In this document: one piece after another, positions 10,398 through 62,451 of the stretch
Position numbering within the stretch: position 1 is the first letter of the stretch
Layout of the letters: each line of letters begins with the position of its first letter
Origin: Kiritimatiellia bacterium
GTDB taxonomy: Bacteria; Verrucomicrobiota; Kiritimatiellia; RFP12; UBA3636
Reading direction: 5' to 3'
Assembly: GCA_045589455.1 (NCBI GenBank)
Contig: JAZNPC010000010.1
Coordinates: 149 to 64,148, forward strand
DNA: 64,000 nt
Position numbers and translations under genes: made by a program
The notes under the pieces: generated by a model
Told to the model about the DNA's origin: nothing
Database searches by the model: none
What the model saw: only the letters and a program-made list of their open reading frames with translations

Positions 10398-10493
10398 GCT
10401 AAGTGCGTATAATAAGTAATTAACGTTATGCTTCTACCTTATGCTTAATATGCGGGCATTCGTGGAGCATACGTTGATTTGCGTGAACTTTTT

Positions 10494-10526
10494 CGGAGTG
10501 TTGGGGATTCAGCCCCAAACACTCCG
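10494..10526 (+). terminator. Stem-loop about 100 nt downstream of the LRR gene (candidate terminator)
   Basis: cggagtgttgggg-attcag-ccccaaacactccg gives a 13-bp stem with one bulge, followed by tattgcttta. Confidence 0.45.
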
Positions 10527-10906: not shown

Positions 10907-12232
10907 ATGAAAACAAAGCTTGTAAAATTTATGTTTCTAATTAGTTGTTGTTGTCTAATGCCTACTCTATATGCAGCATGGACCCAGGATGGCTCCACTG
11001 CAACGGATGGAAATTGGATTTTAAGAATTGATACTAGTGATGGTGTTGTTAAAATTTTAGGGCCAAATGCTGGCTCAGGTGTTCTTGATATATCAACTAT
11101 CGCGAATGACTTGGGTTGCACTGGCGTGATTGTTGGAAATGAAGCTTTTATTGATAATAAAAATGTTACTGGATTGGTTCTCCCAGAAGACCTCATAGAG
11201 CTTTGTGATGGTGCATTTGAACGTTGCACAAATTTAGCTGGCGAGATCAGTACTACAGCAGCCTTCAAAATGTCTGGATATAATGCGTTTGATCGAACAG
11301 CAATTACCTCAGCTATCTTCCCGAATATGACAGGCTCTGTTGGTGCATGGGCATTTTATGAGTGTAAGCAACTAAAAACCGTTGTTCTTGGAGATGGGAT
11401 AACTTCTTTTGGAGAAAAAGCATTTTTCAGTTGTTCTGCACTTGAGTCTGTTTTGCCTAATACTTTGCAAAATGTTACTTTTATTGCTAACGAAGTATTC
11501 AAATATTGTTATGCATTAAAAAGTAGTATGTTTCTACCTAATGTTCGAGAAGTTAAATCTTTAGCATTTGAGGGTGTTGCTTGTGAAGAGATTTCTATGC
11601 CTTCTTGTACAAATATGGTGGGTGGTTGCTTTTATGGATCAAAGATTAAGAAAATTACTCATTCTCCTGATGTGCAGCTTAATGGAGATGTGTTCATTGG
11701 TTGTACTGAGTTAGAGGAGCTAGTTCCTGGAAAATTTAGGAATTTAAGTGTTATTCTAGATGGTACCTTTAAAAATTGCAATTCGCTAAAGAGTTTAGAT
11801 TTTACTGGTTGTACATTTACTTCTGTAAATATTAATTCAGCGCAGTATATGTATGAGATGAAGTATCTTGTGTTGCCAGAAACACTTACAGATATGGGAA
11901 ATTGGTCATTTGAGCGTATAAAGAATAGCGATGTTCTTTTCCGTGGCCCTAAACCAACAATTGGTGGCGGTAATGTTTTTGCTCATAATGGGAATAACCA
12001 AAAATTACGTAATAATATAATTTCTCTTGAAGAACATATTGCTTCATGGACAAATGCTAATTCTGGAGTAACTTTTACACCTCTAGCAAATGTCAGTGAT
12101 AATCAGAAGACAGATGACTATAAATATCCAACTACTAATATAGGGCGAGTTATTGGAACGGTTAACTTTGGTGCATCAACTCATTGGTTGTCTATTTTCA
12201 ATGAAATAGGCACAATTATATTTATAAGATAA
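10907..12232 (+). CDS. BspA-type leucine-rich-repeat surface protein
   Basis: ORF 10877-12232. I prefer the ATG at 10907 (MKTKLVKFMFLISCCCLMPTLYAAW signal-like). It contains repeated 'AF..C..L' LRR_5-like units and shares the N-terminal module with the 8013 gene. Confidence 0.7.
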   Translation: MKTKLVKFMFLISCCCLMPTLYAAWTQDGSTATDGNWILRIDTSDGVVKILGPNAGSGVLDISTIANDLGCTGVIVGNEAFIDNKNVTGLVLPEDLIELCDGAFERCTNLAGEISTTAAFKMSGYNAFDRTAITSAIFPNMTGSVGAWAFYECKQLKTVVLGDGITSFGEKAFFSCSALESVLPNTLQNVTFIANEVFKYCYALKSSMFLPNVREVKSLAFEGVACEEISMPSCTNMVGGCFYGSKIKKITHSPDVQLNGDVFIGCTELEELVPGKFRNLSVILDGTFKNCNSLKSLDFTGCTFTSVNINSAQYMYEMKYLVLPETLTDMGNWSFERIKNSDVLFRGPKPTIGGGNVFAHNGNNQKLRNNIISLEEHIASWTNANSGVTFTPLANVSDNQKTDDYKYPTTNIGRVIGTVNFGASTHWLSIFNEIGTIIFIR

Positions 12233-12236
12233 TAAT

Positions 12237-12288
12237 AAAAAAAAGGGGCTGTTGCAAAACTCAAAAGATTTGCAACAGCCCCTTTTTT
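12237..12288. terminator. Bidirectional intrinsic terminator between convergent genes
   Basis: A8 run, a perfect 14-bp stem ggggctgttgcaaa / tttgcaacagcccc, then a T6 run that overlaps the ptsP stop codon. Confidence 0.85.
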
Positions 12289-14593
12289 AGTCAGAGAAAA
12301 TCGCATCGGTAAATTCATCGATGCGGTTTTCTATGTCGGTAACAAGTGACATAGATAGCAAATCATTTGCATATTCTTCACATTGTTTAATTGTGAAGCG
12401 TGAAATTAATTCGCGAGCGCGTGGAATTTGAATTGCCTCTATACTGAAGTAGCGTAGGCCAATACCAATAAAGAATGGTATGTAGCGAGGGTCTCGACCC
12501 ATCTCACCACAAACAGATACATGCACTCCCTTGTCCTTTGCAACATCTGCAATTCTCTTTAAGCTCTTTAAAATTGCTGGATGATGTGGAAGATAGTAGG
12601 ATGCCACACTGTCATTTGTGCGGTCAACACCTAGTGTATATTGAATTAAATCGTTTGTTCCAATTGAGAAGAAGTCTGATTCCTCTGCAATTGTTTCTAG
12701 AACTGCGAGAATTGCCGGAATCTCAACCATTGTGCCAATGTTTGGAATGATAAGCTCTTTATCTCCTAGCTCAGCCTGAATGCTGTCTGCGCAGTCCCAT
12801 AGACGTTCTTTAGCCGCAATCATTTCCTCTACAGAAGAAATCATAGGGAACATAATGGAAGCGTTTTTACATTCTGTATATTGAATAGCACGTAGGATTG
12901 CGCGTAGCTGCTGATCCATTATATTTGTATAGCGTAGGGTAAAGCGCATTGAGCGTAAGCCCATCGCTGGATTCTCTTCCTTTGTCTTGTAAAGATATGG
13001 AAGAACCTTGTCGCCACCCGCATCAAGTGTTCTAAATGTAATAGGTTTACCATCTGCCTCTTGGATTAGGCGAGTGTAAATGTTTATCTGCTCAGCCTCT
13101 GTAGGGAGAGATTGGCGCATAATAAATGGAAATTCTGTTCTATATAAGCCAATGCCGTCAAAGTTTGCTTTGCGAGCATTCTGCACATCAGCAATTAGGT
13201 TGATGTTTGCCATTAGCATAATGCGTTCACCATCTAGGGTTACGGTTTCATTTGCATTGGCTAATTTATTTGTTGAAGCATTTAATTCATCAAGCTTTTG
13301 AGCCTGACTGCGGAGCTCAAAGTTGTAGCGACGCTCCTCGCTCGGGTTTACGTAAAGATAATCATTTGCACAATCAATAATTATTTGCTGACCCTTAGGA
13401 ATTCGGAGAAGGTCTAGCTCTTTAACAATGATTGTTGGAATGTCTAGTGAGCGAACAAGCAATGAAACATGTGCTGTAGCACCACCAGCGATTAAAGCAA
13501 TACCCTTAACATTGCCCTGAGCAATGCGTAGAATATCTGATGGAAGTAGCTTGTCGGCAATGATTATGTGTGGGCGAGTTAAAATACTATACTCTGGAGT
13601 TTCTTCAGAAACAGCTTCTAGAACTTGAAGAGTTAAATCCTCAACATCACGTGCCTTCTCCTGCATATACTCGTCATCACTTGACTCAAATAGCTTAATA
13701 AATTCGTTTCCTACCTCAACAATAGCTTGTGGGATAGAGTAGCCCTTTTCTGCAACAAGTGCCTTGATTTTCCCAAGGAAATTATCGTCGCGCATAATCA
13801 TTGCGCTAGATTCAAAAATCAAGGATGCTGCCTCTGGAAGGCGCTCATTTAGTGCTTCTGTGGATTCCTTAAGCTTTTTCTCAACAAGCTCAATTGCTTC
13901 ATCTATAGAGCGAACAGTTTCTGTTGGAAGCTGATTAGGATTTAAACGAGAATATTTTCGTGCAAATATGTGCGCCACGCCAATGCCCCAACCATGGGAT
14001 ACTGATGAACCACGATAGGATAGCTCCCCAGTAATCTCTAGAGGGCGCATACCACGCTCAATATCGCGCTTTGCAGATTCAATAGAAATCAATGCACTTG
14101 CATTCTGAATTGCGGAAACAACGTCGTTTGCATTCTCGCGGATGGAGCTAATTTCTTCTGCTAGGAATGGCTCACCAGTAGGACGAAGCAAAAGTATTGC
14201 ACCTACACGCTCCTTTCCCTGCAATAGAGGCACTGCTAGGTAGGTCTGGGTGTCATCATCTGGGAAATTGTGATGGCGAATATAGCCACGCATTGAAGAG
14301 GCACTTTCGGTATAGATTGTGCGACGTTCAGCAAGTGCTCTACCAATTAACCCCTCGCCAATCTTCAAAATGATTCGTGCTTTAGGGAACATTGGGAAGC
14401 CACATGCTGCCTTTTGCGTAAATTCACGGGTTACATTATCGTAGATAAAGATTGAGCCCTTAACAGCGCTATAGGTGTTTACAAAGTACTCTAACACATT
14501 TTGCAAAAATGCCTGAGTGCCATTGCTCTGGGAAATAATTTCCTTGAGCAATGGTTGGGCATTCTTTTGTTTTGTTAAAGTAAAATCAAACAT
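12287..14593 (-). CDS. ptsP: Phosphoenolpyruvate-protein phosphotransferase with N-terminal GAF domain (EI-Ntr type)
   Basis: 768 aa. It has an N-terminal GAF-like region followed by PEP-utilising enzyme regions (GGATAHVSLLVRSLDIPT phospho-His region; LYRTEFPF; SIGTNDLIQYT). Confidence 0.85.
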   Translation of the reverse strand: MFDFTLTKQKNAQPLLKEIISQSNGTQAFLQNVLEYFVNTYSAVKGSIFIYDNVTREFTQKAACGFPMFPKARIILKIGEGLIGRALAERRTIYTESASSMRGYIRHHNFPDDDTQTYLAVPLLQGKERVGAILLLRPTGEPFLAEEISSIRENANDVVSAIQNASALISIESAKRDIERGMRPLEITGELSYRGSSVSHGWGIGVAHIFARKYSRLNPNQLPTETVRSIDEAIELVEKKLKESTEALNERLPEAASLIFESSAMIMRDDNFLGKIKALVAEKGYSIPQAIVEVGNEFIKLFESSDDEYMQEKARDVEDLTLQVLEAVSEETPEYSILTRPHIIIADKLLPSDILRIAQGNVKGIALIAGGATAHVSLLVRSLDIPTIIVKELDLLRIPKGQQIIIDCANDYLYVNPSEERRYNFELRSQAQKLDELNASTNKLANANETVTLDGERIMLMANINLIADVQNARKANFDGIGLYRTEFPFIMRQSLPTEAEQINIYTRLIQEADGKPITFRTLDAGGDKVLPYLYKTKEENPAMGLRSMRFTLRYTNIMDQQLRAILRAIQYTECKNASIMFPMISSVEEMIAAKERLWDCADSIQAELGDKELIIPNIGTMVEIPAILAVLETIAEESDFFSIGTNDLIQYTLGVDRTNDSVASYYLPHHPAILKSLKRIADVAKDKGVHVSVCGEMGRDPRYIPFFIGIGLRYFSIEAIQIPRARELISRFTIKQCEEYANDLLSMSLVTDIENRIDEFTDAIFSD

Positions 14594-25911: not shown

Positions 25912-27933
25912 ATGGATAAAAGAAGAATTGTGGTAACCTCTGCGTTACCTTATGCAAATGGTGATATACATTTGGGCCATTTGGTAGAGTATCTACAGAC
26001 AGATTTTTGGGTTCGTTATCAGAAGCTTCGAGGCAATGAGTGCACATATGTTTGCGCTGATGATACACACGGCACACCAATTATGATTCGTGCAAAGAAG
26101 GATGGTATCACACCTGAAGAGCTAATTGCAGAGAGCTACAAGCGCCACACTGCAGATTTCTCTGAGTTTCAGATTAAATTTGATAATTTTTACTCTACAA
26201 ATTCTCCAGAGAACCTTGAGTTTTGTAAGCAGATTTATGCAAAGCTAAAGGAAAATAATGCGCTAGATTTCCGTAGTATTCCTCAGCTTTATTGCCCAAC
26301 AGATAAGATGTTCCTCCCAGATCGTTTTGTACGCGGCACTTGCCCTAAGTGCGGTGCAGAGGATCAGTATGGTGATTCCTGCGAGAAGTGTGGTGCAACT
26401 TATAACCCAACAGATTTGAAGGATGTTCACTGTTCTGTTTGTGGTGAGCGTAAGCTAGAAACTCGTGAGAGCGAGCACATCTTTTTCAATCTTGAGCAGT
26501 TTAAGGAATACCTACGCTCATGGTTAAAGGACCATACAGCAGAGGATGTTGCTAACAAGCTTTATGAGTGGTTTGATGAAGGTACAACTCTAATGCCATG
26601 GGATATTTCTCGTGATGCTCCATACTTTGGCTTTGAGATTCCTGATCATCCTGGCAAGTATTTCTATGTATGGCTAGATGCACCAGTAGGCTACATGGCT
26701 TCATTAAAGAATTGGTGTACCAAGAATAATGAGGATTTTGATGCTTGGTGGAATAATCCAGATGCAGAGCTTTATCATTTCATTGGTAAGGATATTGTCC
26801 GTTTCCACTGCTTGTTCTGGCCAGCAATGCTTCATGCAGCAGATTTTAAGGGCCCATCACAGGTATTTGTACATGGCTTCTTAACAGTTAACGGCAAGAA
26901 GATGAGTAAGTCACGCGGTACATTTATTAGTGCTCGTACATACTTGGATTGCCTAGACCCAGCATTCTTGCGTTACTACTATGCTTGCAAGCTAAATAAC
27001 ACAACTGATGACGTAGATTTAAATCTTGAGGATTTTGTACAGCGCGTAAATAGCGATCTTGTTGGTAAAATCACCAACCTCGCTTCACGTGGTGTTCAGA
27101 TGCTTAATAAGCGCCTAGACGATGGTATGGGTGTAATGGACGAAGAGGGCTTGAAGCTACGTGAGGAATTCTTGTCCCGTGCAGAGACTATAGCCGCTCA
27201 CTATGAAGCTCGCCGTTTCTCACAGGTTCCTGTTGAGGTATGTCGTCTAGCAGATTTGGCTAATGAATACTTTGATGCAAAGCAGCCATGGGCAACAATT
27301 AAGACAGACCCAGAGGCAACTCGCATTACATTGACCAACATCTTAAATCTCTTCCGCATAATGGCAATTTACCTCTCACCAATTCTTCCTGTTTATGCAG
27401 AGAAGGCAGCAGCGCTATTTGGTGAGCAGCCATATACATGGGATGATATCAATAAGAAGCTAGAAAATCAGAAGGTTGCTAAGTATGAATATTTGGCTTC
27501 TCGCGTACCACCTGAGAAGGTTGAAGAGATGGTAGAGAAGTCAAAGGTTCAGGCTGAAGCAGCAGCTGAGGCTCCTGCAGTACCTGCAATTCCTCTTAAG
27601 GCTGAGGTTGAATTCCCAGAATTTGATAAGGTAGATATGCGTGTGGCGCTAGTTGAGTCTGCAAGCTTTGTAGAAGGCTCAACAAAGCTACTTCAATTCA
27701 CCTTGGACCTTGGTCCTTTAGGTAAGCGCAATATCTTCTCTGGTATTCGTGCATACTATCCTGACCCACAGGTGTTGGTTGGCAAGAAGCTAATAGTTGC
27801 GGCTAATCTAAAGGCTCGTAAGATGCGCTTTGGCGTTTCTGAGGGTATGATTCTTTCTGCAGGCTCAGAGGAGAAGGGCTTCTCTGTTCTTACAGTTATG
27901 GATGATGCACAACCAGGTGATTTAGTTTCCTAA
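25912..27933 (+). CDS. metG: Methionine--tRNA ligase with C-terminal tRNA-binding (EMAP-like) domain
   Basis: 673 aa. HIGH-type motif (ANGDIHLGH), KMSKS motif, a Zn knuckle (CPKCGAEDQYGDSCEKCG) and a C-terminal VDMRVALV...KMRFGVSEGMIL domain. Confidence 0.95.
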   Translation: MDKRRIVVTSALPYANGDIHLGHLVEYLQTDFWVRYQKLRGNECTYVCADDTHGTPIMIRAKKDGITPEELIAESYKRHTADFSEFQIKFDNFYSTNSPENLEFCKQIYAKLKENNALDFRSIPQLYCPTDKMFLPDRFVRGTCPKCGAEDQYGDSCEKCGATYNPTDLKDVHCSVCGERKLETRESEHIFFNLEQFKEYLRSWLKDHTAEDVANKLYEWFDEGTTLMPWDISRDAPYFGFEIPDHPGKYFYVWLDAPVGYMASLKNWCTKNNEDFDAWWNNPDAELYHFIGKDIVRFHCLFWPAMLHAADFKGPSQVFVHGFLTVNGKKMSKSRGTFISARTYLDCLDPAFLRYYYACKLNNTTDDVDLNLEDFVQRVNSDLVGKITNLASRGVQMLNKRLDDGMGVMDEEGLKLREEFLSRAETIAAHYEARRFSQVPVEVCRLADLANEYFDAKQPWATIKTDPEATRITLTNILNLFRIMAIYLSPILPVYAEKAAALFGEQPYTWDDINKKLENQKVAKYEYLASRVPPEKVEEMVEKSKVQAEAAAEAPAVPAIPLKAEVEFPEFDKVDMRVALVESASFVEGSTKLLQFTLDLGPLGKRNIFSGIRAYYPDPQVLVGKKLIVAANLKARKMRFGVSEGMILSAGSEEKGFSVLTVMDDAQPGDLVS

Positions 27934-51082: not shown

Positions 51083-51504
51083 ATGCGTGACGATATAAAT
51101 TTTGATGAAGAAAAGCTAAAAAAGAGCAGTCCAAGTATGCCCCAAAGGATGAGAATGAGATTAAAGAGAAGGTTTTAAATAAAGAAGAAAAGTTGAATAG
51201 CAAGTTTTCTACAATAGAAAAGTTAAAGCCTTATTGGGACGATTTTAAAACAATTTTCTCTATGATTAAGGATTGCGTTACTGGAAAGTATAAAGAAACA
51301 CCATTTACAACAATTGCTAGCTTAGCTGGTGTATTAATTTATGTTCTTTCTCCAATTGATTTAATGGCTGATTTCATTCCACTTCTAGGATATGTGGATG
51401 ATGCTGCAATCTTGGGTCTTGCCATTAAACTAGCTGCTGCAGATATTGAAAAATATCGTCAGTGGAAAAAGACAATAGATGTAGAAGAAAAGCAGGTCAA
51501 CTAA
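51083..51504 (+). CDS. DUF1232/YkvA-family membrane protein; full-length product requires a -1 frameshift at 51118-51124 (otherwise TTG start at 51193)
   Basis: AGGAG lies 7 nt upstream of ATG 51083, opening a 31-codon ORF. The DUF1232 frame (..YVLSPIDLMADFIPLLGYVDDAAILGLAI..) is open from 51109 and is reached by a -1 slip on A AAA AAG. Confidence 0.55.
51118..51124 (+). other. Candidate -1 ribosomal frameshift heptamer A AAA AAG (or homopolymer indel site)
   Basis: In the ATG-51083 frame the codons read cta-aaa-aag. X XXY YYZ = A AAA AAG, the same heptamer as the E. coli dnaX site. Confidence 0.35.
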
Positions 51505-51584: not shown

Positions 51585-52172
51585 ATGAATAACATAGATA
51601 CTGGCCACGGAGCTGAAATTGCAGTAGGCTTAAGGAGTTGCTCTTCGATTATCCTTGTCCCTATTATTGCAATATGCTCAGGCATTATCATTGGTAAAGA
51701 GTACGGAACAGTTGTTGGTATTCTTGGTGGTATTGTTTGTAGCTCTATCTTTTTTAAGCTTTACCATAGGTTTATCGCTACGCAGATTAAAGGACTTACA
51801 GTACTAGACTGCTTGATTCCGTTTTTAGTTTCACTCGTTTCTGGTGTCATTTTTGCTCCAGTGTCACTTTTTTCAGCTAGTGTCTTTTCAATAGCCACAT
51901 GTATTTACTCTGGAGTACTATTGTCAGCAACACTATTCTTGTATAAGGCACAAAAAGTGTCTGTAGGATACCTTGTATTCCCATTTCTAGTCTTTATGTA
52001 TGAAATATTACCTATAGAGCTACCAACGGATCTAGATAACATATTTGCGCTTTCTGGTAATACAGTTCATCAGTTTATTGCATTAACTGCAGCTAAGATG
52101 AAAAAATCGCTCTCTAATGATTCTCCTACCTCAACAGATGACGAGACCATTATTGATGTCGACCCAGAGTAG
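51585..52172 (+). CDS. Polytopic membrane protein of unknown function (about 5 TM, acidic C-terminal tail)
   Basis: 195 aa with successive hydrophobic, G/S-rich segments. The tail is SNDSPTSTDDETIIDVDPE. Confidence 0.55.
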   Translation: MNNIDTGHGAEIAVGLRSCSSIILVPIIAICSGIIIGKEYGTVVGILGGIVCSSIFFKLYHRFIATQIKGLTVLDCLIPFLVSLVSGVIFAPVSLFSASVFSIATCIYSGVLLSATLFLYKAQKVSVGYLVFPFLVFMYEILPIELPTDLDNIFALSGNTVHQFIALTAAKMKKSLSNDSPTSTDDETIIDVDPE

Positions 52173-52248: not shown

Positions 52249-53868
52249 ATGTGTTTATGGATTGTTGTTGGTTCTATTTTAGCATTTATTATAACAATAT
52301 GTATTATGTATTGGAATGTTGTTAAAATTTTATTAATTATAGTTGCTATAATTTATGTGCTATCTTTATTAGTCAGCTTAATTAAAAAAGTAATTAAAAA
52401 GGTTGAGCATGAAAATGAGTTGAAATTATTTGCTATAAATGAAGAGAATAAAACCGAAGAAAAAAAACAAAACATAAATTTCAAAAAGTTGTCAAATATA
52501 CTTTTTGTATCAACAATAGATTTAAGAGAGCATCCATTAAAAAACGAAAAGTATAAAAAACGTAAACAATATTTTGAAGTATTAATGTTTCTAATTAATA
52601 ATTCAGTGATTTCAGAAAAATTGAAAGATTTTACTGAAGGTCGTTTATCTATGTATTTTGATTGTTTGTTGCCTGAATTGATGTCTGAAAAGAGTGAAAT
52701 ATTAAATCAAAAAATAGAAGAAAAGGTTTTTATAAAAAAATTAATGCCTTTGTTTTATTTTGCTAATGTAAAGTATTCATATATATTTCTGTCAGATTTG
52801 TGTTTGTTTCTTCAAGAAGAATCGCTAATTTCATATGCAATAGTTGTATTAAAACGATATCTACCCAAATTTATGTGGGCAAAAATAGATAAAAAATATT
52901 ATAGAATTAAAAATTTATCAGTAATATCTGAAAAATATAAGCAGATTGCTGTTTTAATAGAGCAATATAAAACCAATATTGAATTTTTTGCTAGAAAGGA
53001 AAAAAGGGTAATTGTTACAGCTCTTGTTAGTGCAGGAAAATCAACACTAATTAATTCTTTAATTGGAGAAAGATTAACTAGAACAAAATCGGAAATTTGT
53101 ACAAGTAATTTGGCATACATATATAATAAAGCCTATAATGATGGGACCCTTCATTTTTATCAAAATGATAATAAAAAATCTTCTATAAACCAATGTGTGT
53201 GCTTTAATGCAAGTGAAGATGACATAAATACTTATGATATAAATGAAAAAATAAATGTTTCTGCATCGTTTTTAGGTGTTTACTCAAATTGGTCTAGAAT
53301 TTGTTTAATAGATACACCAGGGGTTGATGCTGCTATTAATGTGGAACATGGGGAGTGTACAAAAAAAGCTCTTTTAAATGAGTGTTATGATATGATTCTT
53401 TATGTGGTAAGTCCAAATCAAATAAGTACGGATTCACAAAAAGAATATTTAAAATGGATATTAAATAATCTTCCTAAAAAAAAGATAGTTTTCGTTATTA
53501 ATAAATTAGATACATTAAAACCTAAAGAAGATAGTATAGCTGATACAATATTTAATTTTTATAAAGATTTATGTGATATCGGTTTTAAGAATCCTACTAT
53601 TTGTCCAATATCTTCTTATTTTTCTTTCTTATTAAAGCAAAAAATATCAGGAAAAGACTTTTCCGAAGATGAAATTGACGATTTTAGGTTTTATAGTAGT
53701 AGGTTTTCTAAACCATTTTATAATTTATCAGGATATTATAACGAAGAATTAGAAGATATTAATCTTGAAATAAATGATTTATTGCAATTAAGCAAACGTT
53801 GTGGTTTATATGGTATTGAAAAAATAATAAATGAGGAAATAAATGAAAAAAATATTTATAAAATATAA
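52249..53868 (+). CDS. Membrane-anchored dynamin-like GTPase (LeoB/C-like)
   Basis: 539 aa with N-terminal TM helices (aa 1-45). G1 is ALVSAGKST (53020-53046), G3 is DTPG (53311-53322) and G4 is NKLD (53500-53511). Confidence 0.75.
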   Translation: MCLWIVVGSILAFIITICIMYWNVVKILLIIVAIIYVLSLLVSLIKKVIKKVEHENELKLFAINEENKTEEKKQNINFKKLSNILFVSTIDLREHPLKNEKYKKRKQYFEVLMFLINNSVISEKLKDFTEGRLSMYFDCLLPELMSEKSEILNQKIEEKVFIKKLMPLFYFANVKYSYIFLSDLCLFLQEESLISYAIVVLKRYLPKFMWAKIDKKYYRIKNLSVISEKYKQIAVLIEQYKTNIEFFARKEKRVIVTALVSAGKSTLINSLIGERLTRTKSEICTSNLAYIYNKAYNDGTLHFYQNDNKKSSINQCVCFNASEDDINTYDINEKINVSASFLGVYSNWSRICLIDTPGVDAAINVEHGECTKKALLNECYDMILYVVSPNQISTDSQKEYLKWILNNLPKKKIVFVINKLDTLKPKEDSIADTIFNFYKDLCDIGFKNPTICPISSYFSFLLKQKISGKDFSEDEIDDFRFYSSRFSKPFYNLSGYYNEELEDINLEINDLLQLSKRCGLYGIEKIINEEINEKNIYKI

Positions 53869-56134
53869 CCCTTATTATTTGGAAACAAAATTTACTATAG
53901 ATGGTAAATCTCTTCCTACAAATAGTGAAATTAATGCACGTATTAATCAACCTGATGTGCGTCTACAAGAGTGGATAGAAGATTTACCTCAGCTTTTGAT
54001 TGATGAATGTAACGATAAGAAGTTTGACATTCAATTTCATGGTACTATATTAGATTACGAAGATGTTAAAGAGGTGTTTGAATGTGCTTCTAATGAAGAA
54101 AAGTTAGAGGTGAAGCTAGATAGAATACCTGCAAAAGAAACATCTGAAAAGGAATCTTTAATTGAAGATGTATTTAAAGAAATACAAAATGGACCTATTG
54201 ATGAACTACGTGATGAGAAAATAATTAATGCATTTAATAATGCAAAAAATAGTGAGTTTGAAATTTGTGTTGTAGCTACAATGAGTGCAGGTAAGTCTAC
54301 ATTGATAAATTCAATGCTTGGAGACAAAATGATGCCTTCAAGTCAAGAGGCTTGCACGGCCATTATTACTAGAATTAAAGATGTTGATTCAAATGTTAAT
54401 TGGCATGCTAAAGTATTTGGAAAAGATAACGAACTATTAGAATCAGTTGAAAGTCTTACATATGAAGAGATGGATAGATTTAATAGAGATTCTAAAGTAT
54501 CTTTAATACAAGCCGAAGGTAATATTCCTTTTGTAACCTCACAAAAAACTTCACTAGTTTTAATTGATACTCCTGGTCCAAATAATTCTAGAGATAAAGA
54601 ACATGAAAAAGTTCAAAGTAGATTTTTAGGTAAGTCGTCTAAAGCACTTGTCCTTTATATTATGGAAGGGACATATGGAAATAATGACGACAATGAATTG
54701 CTTCGTAAGGTTGCAGAGAGTATGAAGTCAGGCGGAAAGCAATCTAAAGACCGTTTCCTTTTTGTTATAAATAAGGTTGATGATCGTAAGCAAGAAGATA
54801 GTAAAATGGAGGATATGCTTTTAAGAATTAAGGACTATTTACAAATACATGGAGTTAAAAATCCAAATTTATATCCTGCAGCAGCTTTACCCGCACTTAA
54901 CATAAGATTAATGCAATCACATAATGACATTCTTGATGAAGACATTCTTGATGAAACAGAATTTAAAGTTAAAAAGTTAAATAGAAATGTTGATTTGCAT
55001 TTAGAAAAGTATTCTTCATTACCATTAAGCCTTAGAAGAAAAATTGATTCTGATTTAGAAATTGCTAAAAATAATGGAGATGTGTTTACACAGGCCTTAA
55101 TTCATACAGGAATAGTTTCTGTTGAGACGGCGATTCGTCAATATGTTGAAAAATATGCAAAAACAGCGAAAATTAAAAATATTGTAGATACTTTTAAAGG
55201 AAAATTAGAGGCTGTTTCTTATGAACAAGAAATGAAGAAAGAGATTGCTAAAAATGAAGAAGAGTGTGAAAAGATTACTGCACAAATAAGTTCGATAGAG
55301 AGTCAAATTAAAGACGGAAAAAATGCTCAAGTATTTAAAAAAGAAGTTTCAAAAGCATTGAAAAAAGTTAAAAAAGAAATAGAGGAAAAGATTAATCAAA
55401 ATGTAGAAGAGTTTCAAAATGAATTATTGGAAATAATTAACACATATGGGAATGATGATATTCCCGTTGAAAAAATCTCTTCAATTTTGTCTCAGGTAAG
55501 TAAAAAGGTAAAGTCAATCGAAGCAAATTTTCAAGTTGCTTTAGAGGGATCAATCAATACTGGATTAATATCAACAAGTAAATATCTTTTAGAAGAGTAT
55601 AAAACAAAACTATCATCGTTAACAAAAGATATAGATTTGAAAAACCTTTCAGGAGTTTTTATTGACCCATTGAAGTTAATGTCAGGTAGTGTTCCAAGTA
55701 TAGATAGCTTAAATATTGATGTAGAAGAAAAAGAAGAGGTAGTAGGTGAAGAATGGATTGAAAATACAAACAAAAAATGGTGGAAGTTTTGGACTTGGTT
55801 TGATGATCCTGGTCATTATATAACAAAGTATAAAACTGTAAAATATGTTTTAGGTAGCGAATTAGCTCAAGAAATGCTCGCACCTATAGAGGATACATTA
55901 ATTCAAAACGGAGAATCTGCATTAAAACAAGCGTTATATCAATCTCAAAGAATAGCGGAAAAATATGAGAAAGAGTTTGTTCGTTTAGATGATGTATTGA
56001 CAAAAAAATTGCGTGAGTTAAAACAAATTACTTCTGATAAAACAAACAAAGAGAAGTTGATTAACGATGCACAAGGAAAATTAAATTGGTTAGATAATAT
56101 TAAGAAAAGAGTTGATTCGATTCTTGAAATATAA
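53843..56134 (+). CDS. Large dynamin-like GTPase with helical stalk (LeoA/DynA-like)
   Basis: 763 aa. G1 is ATMSAGKST (54275-54301), G3 is DTPG (54566-54577) and G4 is NKVD (54770-54781). The C-terminal ~360 aa are K/E-rich and helical, with a Trp-rich patch WIENTNKKWWKFWTWF (55754-55801). The start overlaps the previous ORF by 26 nt; GAGGA Shine-Dalgarno upstream. Confidence 0.8.
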   Translation: MKKIFIKYNPYYLETKFTIDGKSLPTNSEINARINQPDVRLQEWIEDLPQLLIDECNDKKFDIQFHGTILDYEDVKEVFECASNEEKLEVKLDRIPAKETSEKESLIEDVFKEIQNGPIDELRDEKIINAFNNAKNSEFEICVVATMSAGKSTLINSMLGDKMMPSSQEACTAIITRIKDVDSNVNWHAKVFGKDNELLESVESLTYEEMDRFNRDSKVSLIQAEGNIPFVTSQKTSLVLIDTPGPNNSRDKEHEKVQSRFLGKSSKALVLYIMEGTYGNNDDNELLRKVAESMKSGGKQSKDRFLFVINKVDDRKQEDSKMEDMLLRIKDYLQIHGVKNPNLYPAAALPALNIRLMQSHNDILDEDILDETEFKVKKLNRNVDLHLEKYSSLPLSLRRKIDSDLEIAKNNGDVFTQALIHTGIVSVETAIRQYVEKYAKTAKIKNIVDTFKGKLEAVSYEQEMKKEIAKNEEECEKITAQISSIESQIKDGKNAQVFKKEVSKALKKVKKEIEEKINQNVEEFQNELLEIINTYGNDDIPVEKISSILSQVSKKVKSIEANFQVALEGSINTGLISTSKYLLEEYKTKLSSLTKDIDLKNLSGVFIDPLKLMSGSVPSIDSLNIDVEEKEEVVGEEWIENTNKKWWKFWTWFDDPGHYITKYKTVKYVLGSELAQEMLAPIEDTLIQNGESALKQALYQSQRIAEKYEKEFVRLDDVLTKKLRELKQITSDKTNKEKLINDAQGKLNWLDNIKKRVDSILEI

Positions 56135-56145: not shown

Positions 56146-56664
56146 ATGCCTTTAACTAAAGCATTTTATGAAGCAATAAGAACAAAAAATGTTCGTCGAG
56201 TTAGAATAATGTTAAAAAATAGCCTTGTTGTTGATCCATCCTTTTCTGAATATAAATCAATGATTGATATTGCATCTAATTTAGAAGGATTGTTTGATGA
56301 GCATGATGGAAAGATTTTTAATAATGAAAAAAGTTTTTGGAACGATGAATATGTAAGTAAAGAAATGGCAAGACTTATTTCTAATTTTTCTAAGGAAAGA
56401 ATTGATCATTTAAAGGATGTTATTCGTTTCTTGAATCCGATGAATACTAATCAACAAAAGCATTATGGTAAATCCAAAAGGTTTTCACATCAAAAGAGAA
56501 AAATAATTACAGGAGCAGTTGTTGGTGCTACAATTGGTGCATTGTTAGGTAATGTAATAAATGACGAGAATGGAATTGTGTCAGTATTATTCGGAGTTGC
56601 AGGAGCTATAGCTGGTAGTGTTGTTGTGAATTGTATCTCTAATGAGGATAAAGGAAATGAGTGA
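56146..56664 (+). CDS. Glycine-zipper two-TM membrane protein of unknown function
   Basis: 172 aa with AAGGAG Shine-Dalgarno upstream. The C-terminus is ITGAVVGATIGALLGNVI...VSVLFGVAGAIAGSVVVNCI (nt 56503-56637). Confidence 0.6.
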   Translation: MPLTKAFYEAIRTKNVRRVRIMLKNSLVVDPSFSEYKSMIDIASNLEGLFDEHDGKIFNNEKSFWNDEYVSKEMARLISNFSKERIDHLKDVIRFLNPMNTNQQKHYGKSKRFSHQKRKIITGAVVGATIGALLGNVINDENGIVSVLFGVAGAIAGSVVVNCISNEDKGNE

Positions 56665-59600
56665 TAGAGTTGTTTTGGTCAAAGACCATAATTTGAACAA
56701 TTCAATTTTGACGGATGATAATCTTATTGGACAAGGAGAGGGTAAATTTCCTTCGATAACTAAATTGGAGTCAAATTTAAAAGAATCAAGTAAGCTTGTA
56801 CAAGATATTGTTTTGAAAAATTATTTACACAAGTTAAAAGATTTAGAAGTTGTTCCTTTGCCCAATGAATTCAAAGATATAAATAAGCTTCGAATTTTTG
56901 AAATAAACGAAATGGTTTATCAAAAGGATGAATATTCAACCTATAAATTTGCTTCTGTTTTTAGCTCTTTACAAAGCTTAGATTGTGGAGTGTTTATTAT
57001 TGTCAATAGCAATGGAGAAAAAACAGATTTTTATATGGGAGTTCGTTCTAAAGATAATAATCGTACTACTAAATCTTTAAAAGATACTTTGAAAAATGCT
57101 TTGATTGGGCATTTCCCTGGTGTTAAAGTGAAAGATATGTTAGACCCAGAAGTAGAGGATTTTTTATCTGAAATTTCAAAAAATAATGTATCTTCAGTAT
57201 CATGTATTGCTAATAATAAAGATGAAGATTTTAAGAATAATGATAATTTTATCCAAGGTCTTGAAAAATTGGCTTTAGCAATGCAAGGGAAAAAATATAC
57301 TGCTATAGTGCTAGCAAACTCTATTAATAATAGTCAAATTTCGGATGTTCGGAGTGCTTATGAAACCATTTACACTCAGATATCTCCTTTTGCTAATATG
57401 CAACTTTCATATGGGACGAATACTGCTTTAAGTATTTCTGATGCTTTGTCTAAAGGAGCTACAACAGGAAGTTCTTATTCTAAAAATATAGGTACTTCTA
57501 GAGGAACTTCAACATCAAGTGGGGATACATATTCCGAATCAGCTTCAAAGCCTGACATTTTATCTTCTGGATTAAAGATTGCGGGGGCTGCTATTTTAGG
57601 AGCCGCTGCTATAGCTACTGCTATTCCTACAGGAGGGGTTAGTTTAGCAGTAGCTGGAGCAGCTATAGTGAATTCAATTCCAATGGTAACCAAAACCAAA
57701 GGTCGTTCTCACTCAAAAAACAAATCTCAAAGTGTAACATCTAACGAAGGTGAAACATTTGGAGAAAATTCTAGTACTTCTGAAAATGCTACCCATACTA
57801 TAGGAGAAACCATTGGAAAAACAGAAAATATGCAGTTAACAATGCAAAATAAAACATTGTTAAATACATTGGAGAAAATAGATTGTCAGTTACAACGTCT
57901 TAATGAGTGTGAAAGTTTAGGGATGTGGGAATGTGCTGCGTATTTTATGTCAGATAGTTTAGAAACTGTTGAGATGGCCGCAGGAACATATAAGGCTTTA
58001 ATGAAAGGCTCTAAATCAGGTGTTGAAACATCCGCAATTAATACTTGGGGATGGTATGAAAAAAATAAAATTCCAATATTATGTGAATATATTACAAATT
58101 TTATACACCCAATATTTGCCTACCCTACAGATGGAGAATTTATCCCAGTGACTCCAGCATCAATGGTAAGTAGTAATGAGCTTGCAATTCAAATGGGGTT
58201 GCCTAGGAAATCTGTATGTGGTTTTCCTGTTGTTGAACATGCTGAATTTGGAAAAGAGGTTGTTTCTAACTTAGACATTAAATCCTCAAGAACTATTCCT
58301 ATTGGGAATATTTTTTCTATGGGTTCAGAAACAAAAACACCAGTTAAATTAAGTATAGATTCATTGACAATGCATACATTTGTGACTGGTTCAACAGGTT
58401 CAGGTAAGAGTAATACATTATATGAGATTTTGTATCAATTGCATAATTTCAATAATGTCCCTTTTCTAGTAATAGAACCAGCAAAAGGTGAGTATAAAAA
58501 CATTTTTGGAAATTCTCATAATGTGTCAGTATATGGAACGAATGCAAAGAAAACTGAGGTCTTAAAAATAAACCCTTTTAGTTTCCCAGATGATATTCAT
58601 GTATTAGAGCATTTGGATAGACTAGTAGAAATATTTAATGTATGTTGGCCAATGTATGCTGCGATGCCCGCAATTTTGAAGGAAGCAATTGAAAAGGCAT
58701 ATATTTCTGTTGGTTGGGATTTGATTGATTCAATAAATGTCAATGGAAATATATTCCCAAATTTCACTGATGTTTTAGAACAAATTGAGATTGTTATTAA
58801 TGAGTCTCAATATTCAAAAGATTGTAAAGGAGATTATTCTGGTGCTTTAACAACGAGAATTCGCTCTATGACAACAGGTTTAAATCGTCTTATTTTTACA
58901 CAAAATGAAATTTCTAATTCTGATTTATTTGATAAAAGTGTTATTGTTGATTTAAGTAGAGTTGGATCTACAGAAGAGAAAGCTTTAATTATGGGAGTTC
59001 TTGTAATGAAGCTGAATGAATATAGAATGACATCAGGGAAGATAAATAGCTCATTGTCTCACATAACAGTTTTGGAAGAAGCACATAATTTGTTGAAGCG
59101 TACATCAACAGAACAAAGCTCAGAGAGTTCAAACCTTCTTGGTAAATCAGTAGAAATGCTCTCAAATTCTATCGCAGAAATGCGTACATATGGAGAGGGA
59201 TTTATTATTGCTGATCAAGCACCAGGTTTGTTAGACATGTCTGTAATACGAAATACAAATACAAAAATTATACTTCGTTTGCCAGAGAAAAGTGATAGAG
59301 AATTAGTTGGTTATGCTGCTTGTTTAAAGGATAATCAGTTAGATGAAATCTCTAAGCTGCATAGAGGCGTTGCGGTAATATATCAAAATGATTGGATAGA
59401 GCCAGTTCTTGTACAGATTAGAAAATGCAATTTAGAAGAGAATTCTTATTCATACAACCCGCCATCAAAACAAACATCAAAACCGAATGTCTTGAAGCAA
59501 TTGATAAATTTTTTAATATGTAATAATGTTAGGGAAAAATTAGATTTCTCTATTGCAGATATAGAGCAAGGAATAGATTTTTTAGCTTTGTCTTCGTCAA

Positions 59601-59950
59601 ATTTAAATTTTATTAAAAAACTACTTGGAGAATATAAAAAGTTTAATTCATTAGAAATATGGAGTAACCATAAATATAATTCACTTGCTTTAAATATAGT
59701 GAATATTCTTAATCTTAGAAATAAAATTGAGCAATTAGTTTTAAATTCATCTAATAACTCATCGTTAACACATGATTTAAAAGAAATTGTTTTAGATATA
59801 TTCCCAAAATCTTCTGAATCATTTATTATGACTTTAATACATTTGTTTATGAAGGACTTTAGTTTAAGTCGAGAGGAAAATGAACAACGTACTAAAATAT
59901 ATTTAAATTGGTTAAGTTATATTACAAAATATGGAGTAAAAAATGATTAA
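56657..59950 (+). CDS. Membrane-embedded HerA/FtsK-superfamily P-loop ATPase (N-terminal domain, S/T/G-rich segments, 2 TM, DUF87/HerA-like ATPase, C-terminal helical domain)
   Basis: ORF 56642-59950. I prefer the ATG at 56657 (GGATAAAGGAA upstream; ATGAGTGA overlap with the previous stop). Walker A is GSTGSGKS (58388-58411) and Walker B is ITVLEEAH (59063-59086). IIADQAPGLLD...NTNTKIILRL follows. The TM pair LKIAGAAILGAAAIATAIPTGGVSLAVAGAAIVNSIPMV spans nt 57563-57685. Confidence 0.75.
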   Translation: MSDRVVLVKDHNLNNSILTDDNLIGQGEGKFPSITKLESNLKESSKLVQDIVLKNYLHKLKDLEVVPLPNEFKDINKLRIFEINEMVYQKDEYSTYKFASVFSSLQSLDCGVFIIVNSNGEKTDFYMGVRSKDNNRTTKSLKDTLKNALIGHFPGVKVKDMLDPEVEDFLSEISKNNVSSVSCIANNKDEDFKNNDNFIQGLEKLALAMQGKKYTAIVLANSINNSQISDVRSAYETIYTQISPFANMQLSYGTNTALSISDALSKGATTGSSYSKNIGTSRGTSTSSGDTYSESASKPDILSSGLKIAGAAILGAAAIATAIPTGGVSLAVAGAAIVNSIPMVTKTKGRSHSKNKSQSVTSNEGETFGENSSTSENATHTIGETIGKTENMQLTMQNKTLLNTLEKIDCQLQRLNECESLGMWECAAYFMSDSLETVEMAAGTYKALMKGSKSGVETSAINTWGWYEKNKIPILCEYITNFIHPIFAYPTDGEFIPVTPASMVSSNELAIQMGLPRKSVCGFPVVEHAEFGKEVVSNLDIKSSRTIPIGNIFSMGSETKTPVKLSIDSLTMHTFVTGSTGSGKSNTLYEILYQLHNFNNVPFLVIEPAKGEYKNIFGNSHNVSVYGTNAKKTEVLKINPFSFPDDIHVLEHLDRLVEIFNVCWPMYAAMPAILKEAIEKAYISVGWDLIDSINVNGNIFPNFTDVLEQIEIVINESQYSKDCKGDYSGALTTRIRSMTTGLNRLIFTQNEISNSDLFDKSVIVDLSRVGSTEEKALIMGVLVMKLNEYRMTSGKINSSLSHITVLEEAHNLLKRTSTEQSSESSNLLGKSVEMLSNSIAEMRTYGEGFIIADQAPGLLDMSVIRNTNTKIILRLPEKSDRELVGYAACLKDNQLDEISKLHRGVAVIYQNDWIEPVLVQIRKCNLEENSYSYNPPSKQTSKPNVLKQLINFLICNNVREKLDFSIADIEQGIDFLALSSSNLNFIKKLLGEYKKFNSLEIWSNHKYNSLALNIVNILNLRNKIEQLVLNSSNNSSLTHDLKEIVLDIFPKSSESFIMTLIHLFMKDFSLSREENEQRTKIYLNWLSYITKYGVKND

Positions 59951-60896
59951 TAATTTTGACATTAGTAATATCAATAAATTTAACAATGAACTAAAGGATT
60001 GTAATTTATATAAGCAGATTGAAGGAGAAGATAAAAAAAAATCAGGAATAGAAAAATCTCTGGATAATGTTTGTACTCAAGAAACAAATCCAAGTGTTGA
60101 TGAACAAGGACATGTATATAGAAAAGAGAATGGAGATTTGCTCCCTAATAATAATTTCGTGATGGGTGAAAATACATTTAAAACAGATGATAATGGCAAA
60201 ATCTACGCTATAGATGGAAAACTTGTTCCAGAAAATAAGTATGAATTAAATTGTGCTTCGTATGAAACAGACGAATTGGGACGTATTAGAAAAGTAGTTG
60301 CTCAAGACTTAAAGATAACACCAGAAAACTTAAGAGATTCCACAGCACAAACTTTAGTTGGCGGCAAAGATAGATTGCTAGGAGATAATGGCGGTCATTT
60401 GGTTGCTCGTATACATGGGGGCGATGCTGGTATTGGAAATCAAGTAGCTGTTCGCGACGTAATTAATAAAGGTGATTGGAAGATTGATGAGAATACAATA
60501 AGTGATTTAATAAAAAAAGGTAAAAATGTCAGGACGGAAGCGGAAATTTTTTATGATGGTAATTCTGAGCGACCATCTAAAATAGAGATTTCAATCTATT
60601 CTAATGGAGAAAAAATAAGCGAAGCTGTTTATGATAACAATATTGGATCGAAGGATTTATTAGGATTGGAAAAACTTAAAGATATATTAAGCCCTAGTGA
60701 TTATCAAAACCTTTGCGATGAAATTTCTCAATTAGAAAAAAATGGAGATAAGGTTAGTATTACTTCTGTAACATTTAAGTCAGGAGAAGATCCTTCAATA
60801 GCAGTGAGAAATGAAACAACGGAAAAAACTTGTTATTGGCCATGGAATACACGCAATGAAGGAAAAACATTGAGTGATGTATTTCACAATTCATAA
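59943..60896 (+). CDS. His-Me finger nuclease, Endonuclease_NS_2-like (EsaD/YeeF-type toxin domain)
   Basis: 317 aa. The start overlaps the ATPase stop (ATGATTAA). The pre-toxin pattern YETDELGRIRKV is present. Catalytic pattern: GDNGGHLVARIHGG (60381-60407) ..GNQVAV..INKGDWKIDEN..NVRTEAEIFYDGNSERPSKIEISIY. There is no signal peptide or TM. Confidence 0.7.
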   Translation: MINNFDISNINKFNNELKDCNLYKQIEGEDKKKSGIEKSLDNVCTQETNPSVDEQGHVYRKENGDLLPNNNFVMGENTFKTDDNGKIYAIDGKLVPENKYELNCASYETDELGRIRKVVAQDLKITPENLRDSTAQTLVGGKDRLLGDNGGHLVARIHGGDAGIGNQVAVRDVINKGDWKIDENTISDLIKKGKNVRTEAEIFYDGNSERPSKIEISIYSNGEKISEAVYDNNIGSKDLLGLEKLKDILSPSDYQNLCDEISQLEKNGDKVSITSVTFKSGEDPSIAVRNETTEKTCYWPWNTRNEGKTLSDVFHNS

Positions 60897-60916: not shown

Positions 60917-61309
60917 ATGGAAATAACTATAACCTATGAAGAGGTTTCTAATATAATAAAAACCAAATCTAATGTAAATGCGACATTTACAATGATTGAC
61001 AGCGAATCAATAAGTGTTAAAGTTAAACCTGGATTGCTTATTCCTGCGGTTAATATAACCTTAAAATTAGAAAAAGATGCTAAAGAGTATAAAATTCGTT
61101 ATGGCTCTGGTGTTGTGTCTCTTCTAGTAACAAAAATAGTAAATTTGTTCGTAAATGATAAACTACCTGAATTTGTCAGATTAGATACATCGAATAATAC
61201 TTTATCTTTTGATTCTACAATTAAGCATAATGGGATTGTTGTAGATATTAAGGATATTACATTTTTAGAAGAAAAAATTTCAATATCTTTATTTTTAAAA
61301 GATTTGTAA
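60917..61309 (+). CDS. Small beta-rich protein, candidate cognate immunity/inhibitor of the upstream nuclease
   Basis: 130 aa, 20 nt after the nuclease stop, with AGGTAGGTG Shine-Dalgarno upstream. The role is inferred from position only; I recognise no motif. Confidence 0.4.
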   Translation: MEITITYEEVSNIIKTKSNVNATFTMIDSESISVKVKPGLLIPAVNITLKLEKDAKEYKIRYGSGVVSLLVTKIVNLFVNDKLPEFVRLDTSNNTLSFDSTIKHNGIVVDIKDITFLEEKISISLFLKDL

Positions 61310-61734: not shown

Positions 61735-62451
61735 ATGAACGAAAACATTTTGCAAGCAAAACTAGATAAATTGTTTGATAATTGGAAGGCAGCAATAGAT
61801 GCTTGTCCAGAAATTCCTGCAGAAATTAAGGAATGCTTCGTGCGCGATGGCTTCTATCCAGGCTACCTAAACCAAAAGTGTAAGGTGCTGTTTGTGGCTC
61901 GCGAATCACTTAGTGTTGAAGGAGATTATATAAAAGAGGTTTTTGATGCATATAAAAGTAAACGTGTTGGTGGCAAAAATATCAATCAGTATCAATTCCA
62001 TGCGTTAATGATGTATATAGCATATGCTCTAAATAATAATTGCTTTGATTGGAATAGCATTCCTTGGGCAGAAAAGCTCTGCGAGACATTTGGTACGCCT
62101 GGCGGACTTAGCTTCGCTTTTATGAATTTGTCTAAATTCAGTAATTGGTCGAAATCTAGTTGGCAAAGTAATTGGAATTTGATAAATTCTTCTCTAAATG
62201 TTAGTGGCAACGATTCTTTCATCAAACAGGAAATTGAATTGCTAGACCCAGATGTAATTATTACTATGAATTTAGATGGTAATTTAAGTTACTTGGGTGA
62301 AATGCGCAAGATTGTTAATACCACCGATATCAATAAATATGCTTACAAGATCAATGGTAAGGAAATACCTCTCTACGATATGTGGCATTTTTCTGCCCCA
62401 AGTAAGTCGCCAAGAGGAAATTATTTGGAGCCACTTAGTAAATTAGTTTAA
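61735..62451 (+). CDS. Hypothetical protein, possibly uracil-DNA-glycosylase-fold
   Basis: 238 aa with AAGGAG Shine-Dalgarno upstream. It loosely resembles UDG-superfamily motif positions (KVLFVARES ... LDPDVIITMN ... WHFSAPS). Composition is closer to the core genome. Confidence 0.3.
   Translation: MNENILQAKLDKLFDNWKAAIDACPEIPAEIKECFVRDGFYPGYLNQKCKVLFVARESLSVEGDYIKEVFDAYKSKRVGGKNINQYQFHALMMYIAYALNNNCFDWNSIPWAEKLCETFGTPGGLSFAFMNLSKFSNWSKSSWQSNWNLINSSLNVSGNDSFIKQEIELLDPDVIITMNLDGNLSYLGEMRKIVNTTDINKYAYKINGKEIPLYDMWHFSAPSKSPRGNYLEPLSKLV

Follow-up and report, generated by a model that had tools for sequence, protein, structure and literature searches.

Positions 149 to 64,148 of contig JAZNPC010000010.1 from a Kiritimatiellia bacterium (assembly GCA_045589455.1), a stretch of 64,000 nucleotides (nt) referred to here as the window, contain a gene for a VirB4-like/HerA-clade ATPase. 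This gene belongs to a conserved cassette that also encodes two dynamin-like GTPases, a small glycine-zipper protein, a toxin and an immunity protein; we read it as a polymorphic toxin system driven by a motor of the FtsK/HerA/VirB4 superfamily. We see about an even chance that the ATPase is the motor of an undescribed apparatus for the export or delivery of polymorphic toxins. The copy in the window comprises the following genes:

52249..53868, + strand: dynamin-like GTPase 1 (dyn1), 539 amino acids (aa); Pfam Dynamin_N, 8.3e-16
53843..56134, + strand: dynamin-like GTPase 2 (dyn2), 763 aa; Pfam Dynamin_N, 1.3e-16; its start overlaps the end of dyn1
56146..56664, + strand: small glycine-zipper protein, 172 aa; conserved N-domain of ~100 aa, hydrophobic hairpin at the C-terminus; the end of the gene overlaps the start of the ATPase gene
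56657..59950, + strand: VirB4-like/HerA-clade ATPase, 1097 aa from its true start (open reading frame (ORF) 56642..59950, 1102 aa)
59943..60896, + strand: toxin, 317 aa, Endonuclea_NS_2 (Pfam E 1e-20)
60917..61309, + strand: putative immunity protein, 130 aa, assigned by position only

Comparison of 80 genome loci, with enough flanking sequence upstream of the ATPase gene in 66 and downstream in 70, showed a nearly constant gene order: an optional WYL regulator, dyn1, dyn2, the small protein, the ATPase, the toxin and the immunity protein. This order is identical in Clostridium perfringens, Paenibacillus, Lacrimispora and Oscillospiraceae, the four contexts for which Pfam annotation was examined. 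Upstream of the ATPase gene, dyn2 is found in 61 of the 66 loci, dyn1 in 55 (sometimes fused to dyn2), the small protein in 54 and the WYL regulator in 31; the window copy has no WYL regulator in the upstream segment 50250-52249. Downstream, a toxin-sized gene (114-328 aa, mostly 160-340) abuts the ATPase gene in 70/70 loci and is followed in 67 of them by a gene for 50-200 aa. The toxin gene starts at -3 or 0 relative to the ATPase stop in 62 of 79 cases, and in the window the ATPase stop overlaps the start of the Endonuclea_NS_2 gene by 8 nt; translation of the toxin gene is coupled to that of the ATPase gene.

The pair of genes behind the ATPase gene encodes a polymorphic toxin and its cognate immunity protein, as seen from the swappable toxin domains, the shared leader and the covarying next gene. 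The 79 toxins compared fall into WHH/Colicin-DNase (28), NS_2 (18), LHH (9), restriction endonuclease (REase)-like (8), other HNH (8), HExxH peptidase (4) and other (4) classes, which Pfam confirmed on 47 representatives. A common N-terminal leader with the consensus M-i..FKeVtE...nRFAeSPLGKqlEG..fD.....yDkpL precedes these domains, and its profile matches 54 of the 79 toxins in at least seven toxin classes; the [YL]DKP[LI] motif is retained even by the toxin of the distant Escherichia coli copy. A signal-peptide-like N-terminus was found in 0/79 toxins. The genes that follow the toxin gene form seven multi-member clusters, each confined to one toxin class (26/26, 17/17, 8/8, 7/7, 5/5, 2/2 and 2/2), and the products of 34 representatives include SMI1/KNR4 (SUKH) proteins in 12, DUF6985 in 6 and proteins named 'Immunity protein YezG-like' in 3 cases. 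In one locus (L032, 13300-15283), two different leader-bearing toxin-immunity pairs stand in tandem behind a single ATPase gene. The first pair consists of an HExxH peptidase and a 103-aa protein, the second of a WHH nuclease (from ~14322) and a 125-aa protein of the WHH-associated immunity cluster.

The toxin of the window is organised as follows:

59943-60077, + strand: N-terminal leader, aa 1 to ~45
60237-60602, + strand: Endonuclea_NS_2 domain, aa 99-220

Its closest solved relative is EssD (2.2e-18), a nuclease toxin exported by the type VII secretion system (T7SS) of Staphylococcus aureus. The 130-aa product of the next gene is the putative cognate immunity protein.

The sequence of the ATPase core places it in the HerA clade. 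Pfam DUF87/HerA matches aa 553-788 (E 8.8e-15, 55.8 bits against a cut-off of 23.2; residue numbers refer throughout to the 1102-aa ORF that begins at 56642), PADLOC HerA models match down to 8e-20, and the nearest chains in the Protein Data Bank (PDB) by core sequence are the HerA-type 8wiv, 4d2i, 9c1m, 8xau, 8yho and 8j4u. The Walker A motif GSTGSGKSNT (aa 583-592, nt 58388-58417), the Walker B motif VLEEAH (aa 810-815, nt 59069-59086) and the segment IIADQAPG...NTNTKIILRL are all found, and G583, G588, K589, E812, E813, H815 and D858 are invariant in an alignment of 89 diverse relatives. Judged by these residues, the core is catalytically intact. The HerA/DUF87-like motifs had been recognised in an initial annotation of the sequence, and its other statements on the gene also stand: the start at 56657, the size of about 1100 aa, the overlap of the stop codon with a nuclease gene, the single ATPase domain (one P-loop domain) and the lack of an FHA domain (no Pfam match). 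The start is the second methionine of the ORF (MSD...), which is common to all homologues, follows AAGGA and overlaps the stop of the upstream small-protein gene by 8 nt.

No curated family covers this ATPase. The NCBIfam HerA equivalogs reach 43-60 bits, far under their cut-offs of 800-970, and give no full-length HerA match; the NCBIfam 'serine-rich protein' model NF033849 alone sees part of the architecture, again far under cut-off. VirB4, TraC and CagE models of Pfam and NCBIfam do not match at E<=0.1, and a profile of the family finds no VirB4 chain in the PDB at E<=1. An hhalign comparison with the Gram-positive VirB4 of the Lactococcus plasmid pB26B gave a probability of 12%, obtained with a single-sequence template and hence with low power.

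Structure prediction revealed a different affinity for the N-terminal half of the protein. AlphaFold2 models built from the 89-sequence alignment, one for aa 1-560 (predicted template modelling score (pTM) 0.71) and one at full length (mean predicted local distance difference test (pLDDT) 82, pTM 0.76), are confident except for aa 1-35 and aa 258-397, and divide the protein as follows:

56756..57427, + strand: N-terminal domain, first half, aa 39-262
57428..57814, + strand: Ser/Thr/Gly/Asn-rich low-complexity insert, aa 263-391, pLDDT ~30
57569..57688, + strand: Ala/Gly-rich hydrophobic hairpin in the centre of the insert, aa 310-349, with a P-T-G-G turn
57815..58246, + strand: N-terminal domain, second half, aa 392-535, pLDDT >90, packing with aa 39-262
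58292..59419, + strand: RecA-like ATPase core, aa 551-926
59480..59935, + strand: C-terminal all-helical domain, aa 947-1098, eight helices, pLDDT ~90

In the models, aa 39-262 and aa 392-535 pack as one compact unit. The ~300-aa N-terminal domain described in the initial annotation is thus not a separate unit but one half of a domain, whose second half begins at aa 392. The strands 252-262 and 392-402, each of which carries an NMQL motif, are paired with one another, and the low-complexity tracts with the hairpin between them form a ~130-aa loop, modelled at low confidence, that emerges at the tip of a β-hairpin of the N-domain. This insert is probably flexible or disordered.

A structural comparison of the N-terminal region, suggested with the initial annotation, identified VirB4 as its closest match. 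In Foldseek, chains of the VirB4 protein TrwK (7o41, 7o42, 8rtb, 8rtd) account for 10 of the top 11 matches with probabilities of 0.84-1.00, and a VirB4-type fold was found for the N-terminal domain as well as for the C-terminal ATPase domain. Defence-type HerAs score ~21, FtsK and TrwB ~17 and EccC/EssC 12-17, and HerA structures align across ~340 residues only. Ahead of the P-loop, where HerA has its HAS-barrel, lie an α/β domain like the N-terminal domain of VirB4 and two strands (aa 551-571). The helical C-terminal domain is the least conserved part of the protein (alignments A1 and A4), and no Pfam or NCBIfam family matches aa 947-1098. According to the models, the ATPase combines a VirB4-type N-domain with a core of the HerA/VirB4 clade and a variable helical C-terminal domain. 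The fold plan is VirB4-like, the core sequence is HerA-like, and the ATPase belongs to neither of the two curated families.

The Ala/Gly-rich hydrophobic pair with Ser/Thr/Gly/Asn-rich flanks that the initial annotation had noted is confirmed at aa ~310-349. It reads GLKIAGAAILGAAAIATAI-PTGG-VSLAVAGAAIVNSIPMV, with KD19 values of 1.5-1.8, and lies in an insert in which Ser, Thr, Gly and Asn make up 49% of the residues, compared with 28% elsewhere in the ATPase. An S/T-rich insert of 65-229 aa is present in 89/89 relatives. The hairpin itself, scored as present at KD19 >= 1.2 within the insert, was found in 52/89 inserts, regardless of whether these were extracted as aa 250-400 from the aa 1-560 alignment (A2) or as aa 255-398 from the full-length alignment (A4). 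It is kept in 18/18 close homologues, where K312 is invariant and the turn reads P-x-TGG, and this conservation shows that it is not a chance feature. Because the insert exits and re-enters between two paired β-strands, both ends of the hydrophobic pair must lie on the same side, and the flank on the C-terminal side of the pair is rich in Lys and Arg. The earlier proposal that both large domains face the cytoplasm would hold if the pair inserts into the membrane, but spanning is not predicted with confidence.

The genes upstream of the ATPase gene encode the two dynamins and the small protein. Both dynamins have intact G motifs and are of the fusion type, and the closest solved relatives of dyn2 are BDLP (2j68) and mitofusin. 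Their resemblance to LeoA and LeoBC of the Eleos system is weak and partial: the PADLOC LeoA match of dyn1 covers only aa 347-427 (9.6e-14), the LeoBC match is at 1.3e-3, and NCBIfam LeoA reaches 38.7 bits against a cut-off of 325, with no full-length match to the two Eleos genes. In three loci (L011, L068 and L074), dyn1 and dyn2 form a single fused ORF of 1100-1290 aa, reminiscent of the two-headed DynA of Bacillus subtilis. The dyn1 protein of the window carries at aa 1-50 (52249-52400) an extension with two hydrophobic helices, for which the position-independent Hessa sums (ΔG_app, apparent free energy of insertion, in kcal/mol) are -5.4 and -3.5. Such a two-helix transmembrane (TM) extension is found in none of the dyn1 proteins of 55 other loci and may be a lineage-specific membrane anchor of the Kiritimatiellia copy. 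The small protein gives weak Pfam glycine-zipper matches at aa 122-160 (Hessa +1.0 and +1.95). Its family comprises 95 proteins of 122-205 aa (mostly ~165-193) that have no functional name. The protein at this position always ends in a glycine-zipper hairpin more hydrophobic than that of the ATPase or, in E. coli, in one TM segment.

Individual traits of the cassette are familiar from other systems. A conserved N-terminal trafficking part joined to swappable WHH, LHH, NS_2, REase or HExxH C-termini, a covarying SUKH or YezG immunity gene and cassettes in tandem are shared with the polymorphic toxin systems surveyed by Zhang et al. 2012 (PMC3482391), but the toxins found here are unusually short and lack repeats or filamentous parts. 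A dynamin pair combined with a small protein and a VirB4-like ATPase is not among the trafficking modes given in that survey, which mentions HerA only for the T7SS ATPase YueA (PMC3482391). Paired or fused fusion-type dynamin GTPases are shared with BDLP, DynA and LeoABC/Eleos; unlike in Eleos, however, the dynamins described here are invariably linked to an ATPase-toxin-immunity module. The cassette is not described in the literature searched, although subscription journals were mostly outside its coverage and an earlier description is possible.

For this combination of components we tentatively propose, with chances that we place somewhat below even, a previously unrecognised protein-delivery system in which a membrane-tethered VirB4-like hexamer recognises the toxin leader and dynamins remodel the membrane. 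The ATPase would form a hexamer on the cytoplasmic face of the membrane, where the small protein would hold it, taking the place that VirB3 has beside VirB4. We infer that the small protein is the constant membrane anchor and that the hairpin of the ATPase, which may pack against it, is a glycine-zipper element specific to this clade; in the hairpin-bearing clade, the glycine zipper of the ATPase itself would add to the anchoring. After recognition of the leader by the ATPase, ATP would power the export of the toxin or its hand-over for delivery to competitor cells, while the immunity protein would shield the producing cell and its kin. At the transfer site, the two fusion-type dynamins would remodel or reseal the membrane, for which vesicle formation, cell-cell bridging and resealing are conceivable options.

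Several points weigh against such a delivery apparatus. Export of the toxin is itself deduced from sequence. The toxins are small, and no receptor-binding or translocation domain can be recognised in them, which leaves their entry into target cells unexplained; dynamins work from the cytoplasmic face, which is not an obvious fit with outward transfer. The 130-aa immunity candidate of the window has no family match and forms a singleton among the 68 immunity-position proteins compared. HerA-family ATPases, dynamin pairs such as Eleos and WYL regulators are all well known from defence against phages, and several copies of the cassette adjoin abortive-infection (Abi), toxin-antitoxin or restriction-like genes. 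Finally, the hairpin of the ATPase is found in 34 of the 71 distant relatives and missing from 37, most of which have no strongly hydrophobic segment elsewhere either, and its Hessa sums of +2.8 and +5.3 do not predict unaided membrane spanning (the clear TM helices of dyn1 reach the values given above and a buried strand of the N-domain +5.7). An obligate TM hairpin as the defining feature of the family was rejected on account of the marginal sums and its absence from the 37 distant members.

Some of these observations also favour a role in abortive infection or anti-phage defence, in which the dynamins or the ATPase would sense phage-induced events at the membrane or on DNA and the HerA-type hexamer would activate the toxin inside the producer, e.g. 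by stripping the immunity protein or antitoxin from it, so that the infected cell dies or stops growing. In this direction point the core sequence, which by PADLOC and PDB chains is closest to defence-type HerAs, the weak matches of the dynamins to LeoA and LeoBC, the WYL regulator upstream in 31/66 loci, the toxins without any domain for target-cell entry and a number of neighbours. On pB26B these include an Abi protein and an Fst toxin, in C. perfringens a helicase-HNH gene and an NTP_transf_2 gene pair, and in Paenibacillus an AAA_21 gene. The HerA defence systems Sir2-HerA and DUF4297-HerA are not known to include an immunity gene. Here, however, an immunity gene is present and neither Sir2 nor DUF4297 was found; WHH, LHH, NS_2/EssD, SUKH and YezG are families of exported polymorphic toxins; a shared leader on swappable toxins and tandem toxin-immunity pairs are typical of secretion substrates; and the fold of the N-domain is that of a secretion ATPase. 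PADLOC returns only generic HerA, mad8 and the weak LeoA/LeoBC matches for the cassette, and none of its system models fits the whole of it. On balance, we regard a role in defence as the main rival reading, but as less likely than toxin delivery. The comparison with HerA systems also illustrates how far the ATPase departs from them: HerA-NurA and the Sir2-HerA (Nezha) and DUF4297-HerA pairs share its core sequence and the adjacent effector gene, but its N-terminal region is VirB4-like instead, the protein is about twice the size of HerA, and the place of the effectors NurA, Sir2 or DUF4297 is taken by polymorphic toxins that bear a leader and have immunity proteins. A HerA-NurA-like pair of helicase and nuclease for DNA end processing or repair, which the adjacency of the two genes could suggest, is contradicted by the polymorphism of the toxin, because at least six nuclease families that are unrelated to one another, as well as HExxH peptidases, occur at the 'nuclease' position. 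An immunity gene of the SUKH or YezG type comes next, no NurA, Mre11 or Rad50 genes lie in the four annotated contexts, and the HerA equivalogs stay far under cut-off while the N-terminal region is not HerA-like; there is next to no chance that this reading is correct.

A more specific relation to secretion was implied by the initial annotation, which compared the arrangement of a soluble N-domain, two TM helices and an FtsK/HerA-superfamily ATPase with EssC. On the functional side the parallel has become stronger: as in EssC/EccC with EssD-EsaG, an FtsK/HerA-superfamily ATPase with hydrophobic segments ahead of its core is linked to an exported-type NS_2 nuclease that has an N-terminal targeting region and an immunity protein, within a polymorphic toxin-immunity arrangement. 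On the structural side, the N-domain is VirB4-like, and a hydrophobic pair is present for which spanning is not confidently predicted. A T7SS variant in which a membrane-embedded FtsK-type coupling ATPase exports WXG/LXG-type substrates could account for the EssD-like nuclease of the window, the YezG-like proteins at the immunity position and the hydrophobic hairpin N-terminal to the core. It is nevertheless very improbable, as the protein has one P-loop domain instead of the two or three tandem FtsK-like domains of EssC/EccC and no FHA domain, no T7SS component such as WXG100 is among the Pfam families precomputed for the four annotated neighbourhoods, LXG is absent from the families reported for the 47 toxins, and the leader is a different motif of ~45 aa. 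The other alternative from the field of secretion is an ordinary conjugative VirB4 (TraC/TcpF/PrgJ type) of a type IV secretion system (T4SS) that energises DNA transfer beside an unrelated nuclease gene. The possibility that the family is a known VirB4/TraC/TcpA ATPase had been raised together with the initial annotation; it is borne out for the VirB4-like fold of N-domain and core, but no such sequence model matches (Pfam, NCBIfam, the family profile against the PDB and the hhalign value of 12%) and no T4SS genes lie nearby. Compared with TrwK of R388, moreover, the ATPase has the ~130-aa S/T-rich loop with a hydrophobic hairpin in its N-domain and an extra helical C-terminal domain. Some copies do reside on conjugative plasmids, but pB26B carries a complete VirB4/PrgI/VirD4/CHAP module of its own, ~30 kb from the cassette; no VirB3, VirB6, VirB8, VirD4, relaxase or cell-wall hydrolase was found within 10 kb in the four Pfam-annotated contexts; and the constant partners of the ATPase are the two dynamins and the toxin-immunity pair, not T4SS genes. 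The context effectively refutes a conjugative VirB4, to which we assign hardly any probability. A phage origin was also considered and rejected, with PHROGs returning one family of unknown function and a weak match to a terminase P-loop, and a phage database one unannotated record of 7 kb.

The cassette is widely distributed. Relatives of the ATPase were found in at least 344 species genomes, mostly of Clostridia, Bacilli and Negativicutes and more rarely of Synergistota, Prevotella, Porphyromonadaceae, Succinivibrio and a betaproteobacterium. A word-indexed search gave more than 1,500 ATPase matches, the best 120 of which are nearly all ~1100 aa long and 60-68% identical and are named only 'ATP-binding' or 'DUF87'. 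The N-domain alone retrieves 824 clusters at 50% identity; 73 of the best 150 matches have at least 990 aa, and the shorter ones are probably fragments. One further protein of 1766 aa (P0229) contains 12 separate stretches that match aa 149-229 of the N-domain and may be a repeat protein derived from this sub-element or a low-complexity artefact.

The cassette is a horizontally mobile conflict cassette. In the window it lies in a block of low GC content (0.26-0.32 compared with ~0.40) that extends from ~52000 to the window end, and copies are found on conjugative plasmids of Lactococcus (pB26B) and E. coli (pTW10590_133), in the latter species in 1 of 5426 complete genomes. The methionyl-tRNA synthetase encoded at 25912-27933 of the window groups at 90% identity or more with proteins of Kiritimatiellia metagenome-assembled genomes, which points to a probable host from this lineage, a diderm of the Planctomycetes-Verrucomicrobia-Chlamydiae group. 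The cassette is otherwise typical of Firmicutes. The E. coli copy (L088) is located at 4778-13177 of the IncI plasmid pTW10590_133 of the enterotoxigenic E. coli (ETEC) strain TW10590, where it adjoins an IS66 transposase; its annotation reads dynamin, dynamin, hypothetical, ATP-binding, HNH/ENDO VII nuclease and SMI1/KNR4. At ~29% identity, it has a dyn1 of only 324 aa, a small protein of 290 aa in which the N-domain is duplicated and one TM lies at the C-terminus, an ATPase insert without the hydrophobic hairpin, an LHH toxin and an SMI1/KNR4 immunity protein. The conjugation module of pB26B (L089, 9765-15867) consists of a VirB4-like protein of the CD1110 family, PrgI, a VirD4-like protein, a CHAP hydrolase and a relaxase; this plasmid additionally bears a bacteriocin-immunity pair and an Abi gene. 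Around the cassette of the window, the following ORFs were noted:

51193-51504: DUF1232 protein, at the edge of the low-GC block, upstream of the cassette
51585-52172: 195-aa multi-TM protein, at the edge of the low-GC block, upstream of the cassette
61735-62451: 238-aa ORF 3' of the cassette, with a very weak match to uracil-DNA glycosylase family 4 (E 0.08) and nothing significant in Pfam, NCBIfam, PADLOC or PHROGs

If a delivery apparatus of the proposed kind exists, it would represent a new type of secretion or delivery in several hundred species of Firmicutes, which by horizontal transfer would have reached Bacteroidota, Synergistota, Kiritimatiellia and E. coli. It would stand outside the known routes of polymorphic toxins (type I, type II and type IV to type VII secretion systems, Photorhabdus virulence cassettes (PVC), TcdB/TcaC and others) and would assign a defined job to bacterial dynamin pairs. 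Should the cassette serve phage defence instead, it would constitute a new multi-gene class that unites dynamins, a HerA-clade motor and toxin-antitoxin logic. With one copy on a dairy plasmid of Lactococcus and another on a plasmid of ETEC, the system is directly testable in tractable hosts. The presence of a VirB4-type N-domain outside conjugation and type IV secretion bears on the diversification of HerA, VirB4 and FtsK motors, and a dynamin pair that is genetically locked, in hundreds of species, to a secretion-type ATPase and a toxin-immunity module bears on the function of dynamins in bacteria.

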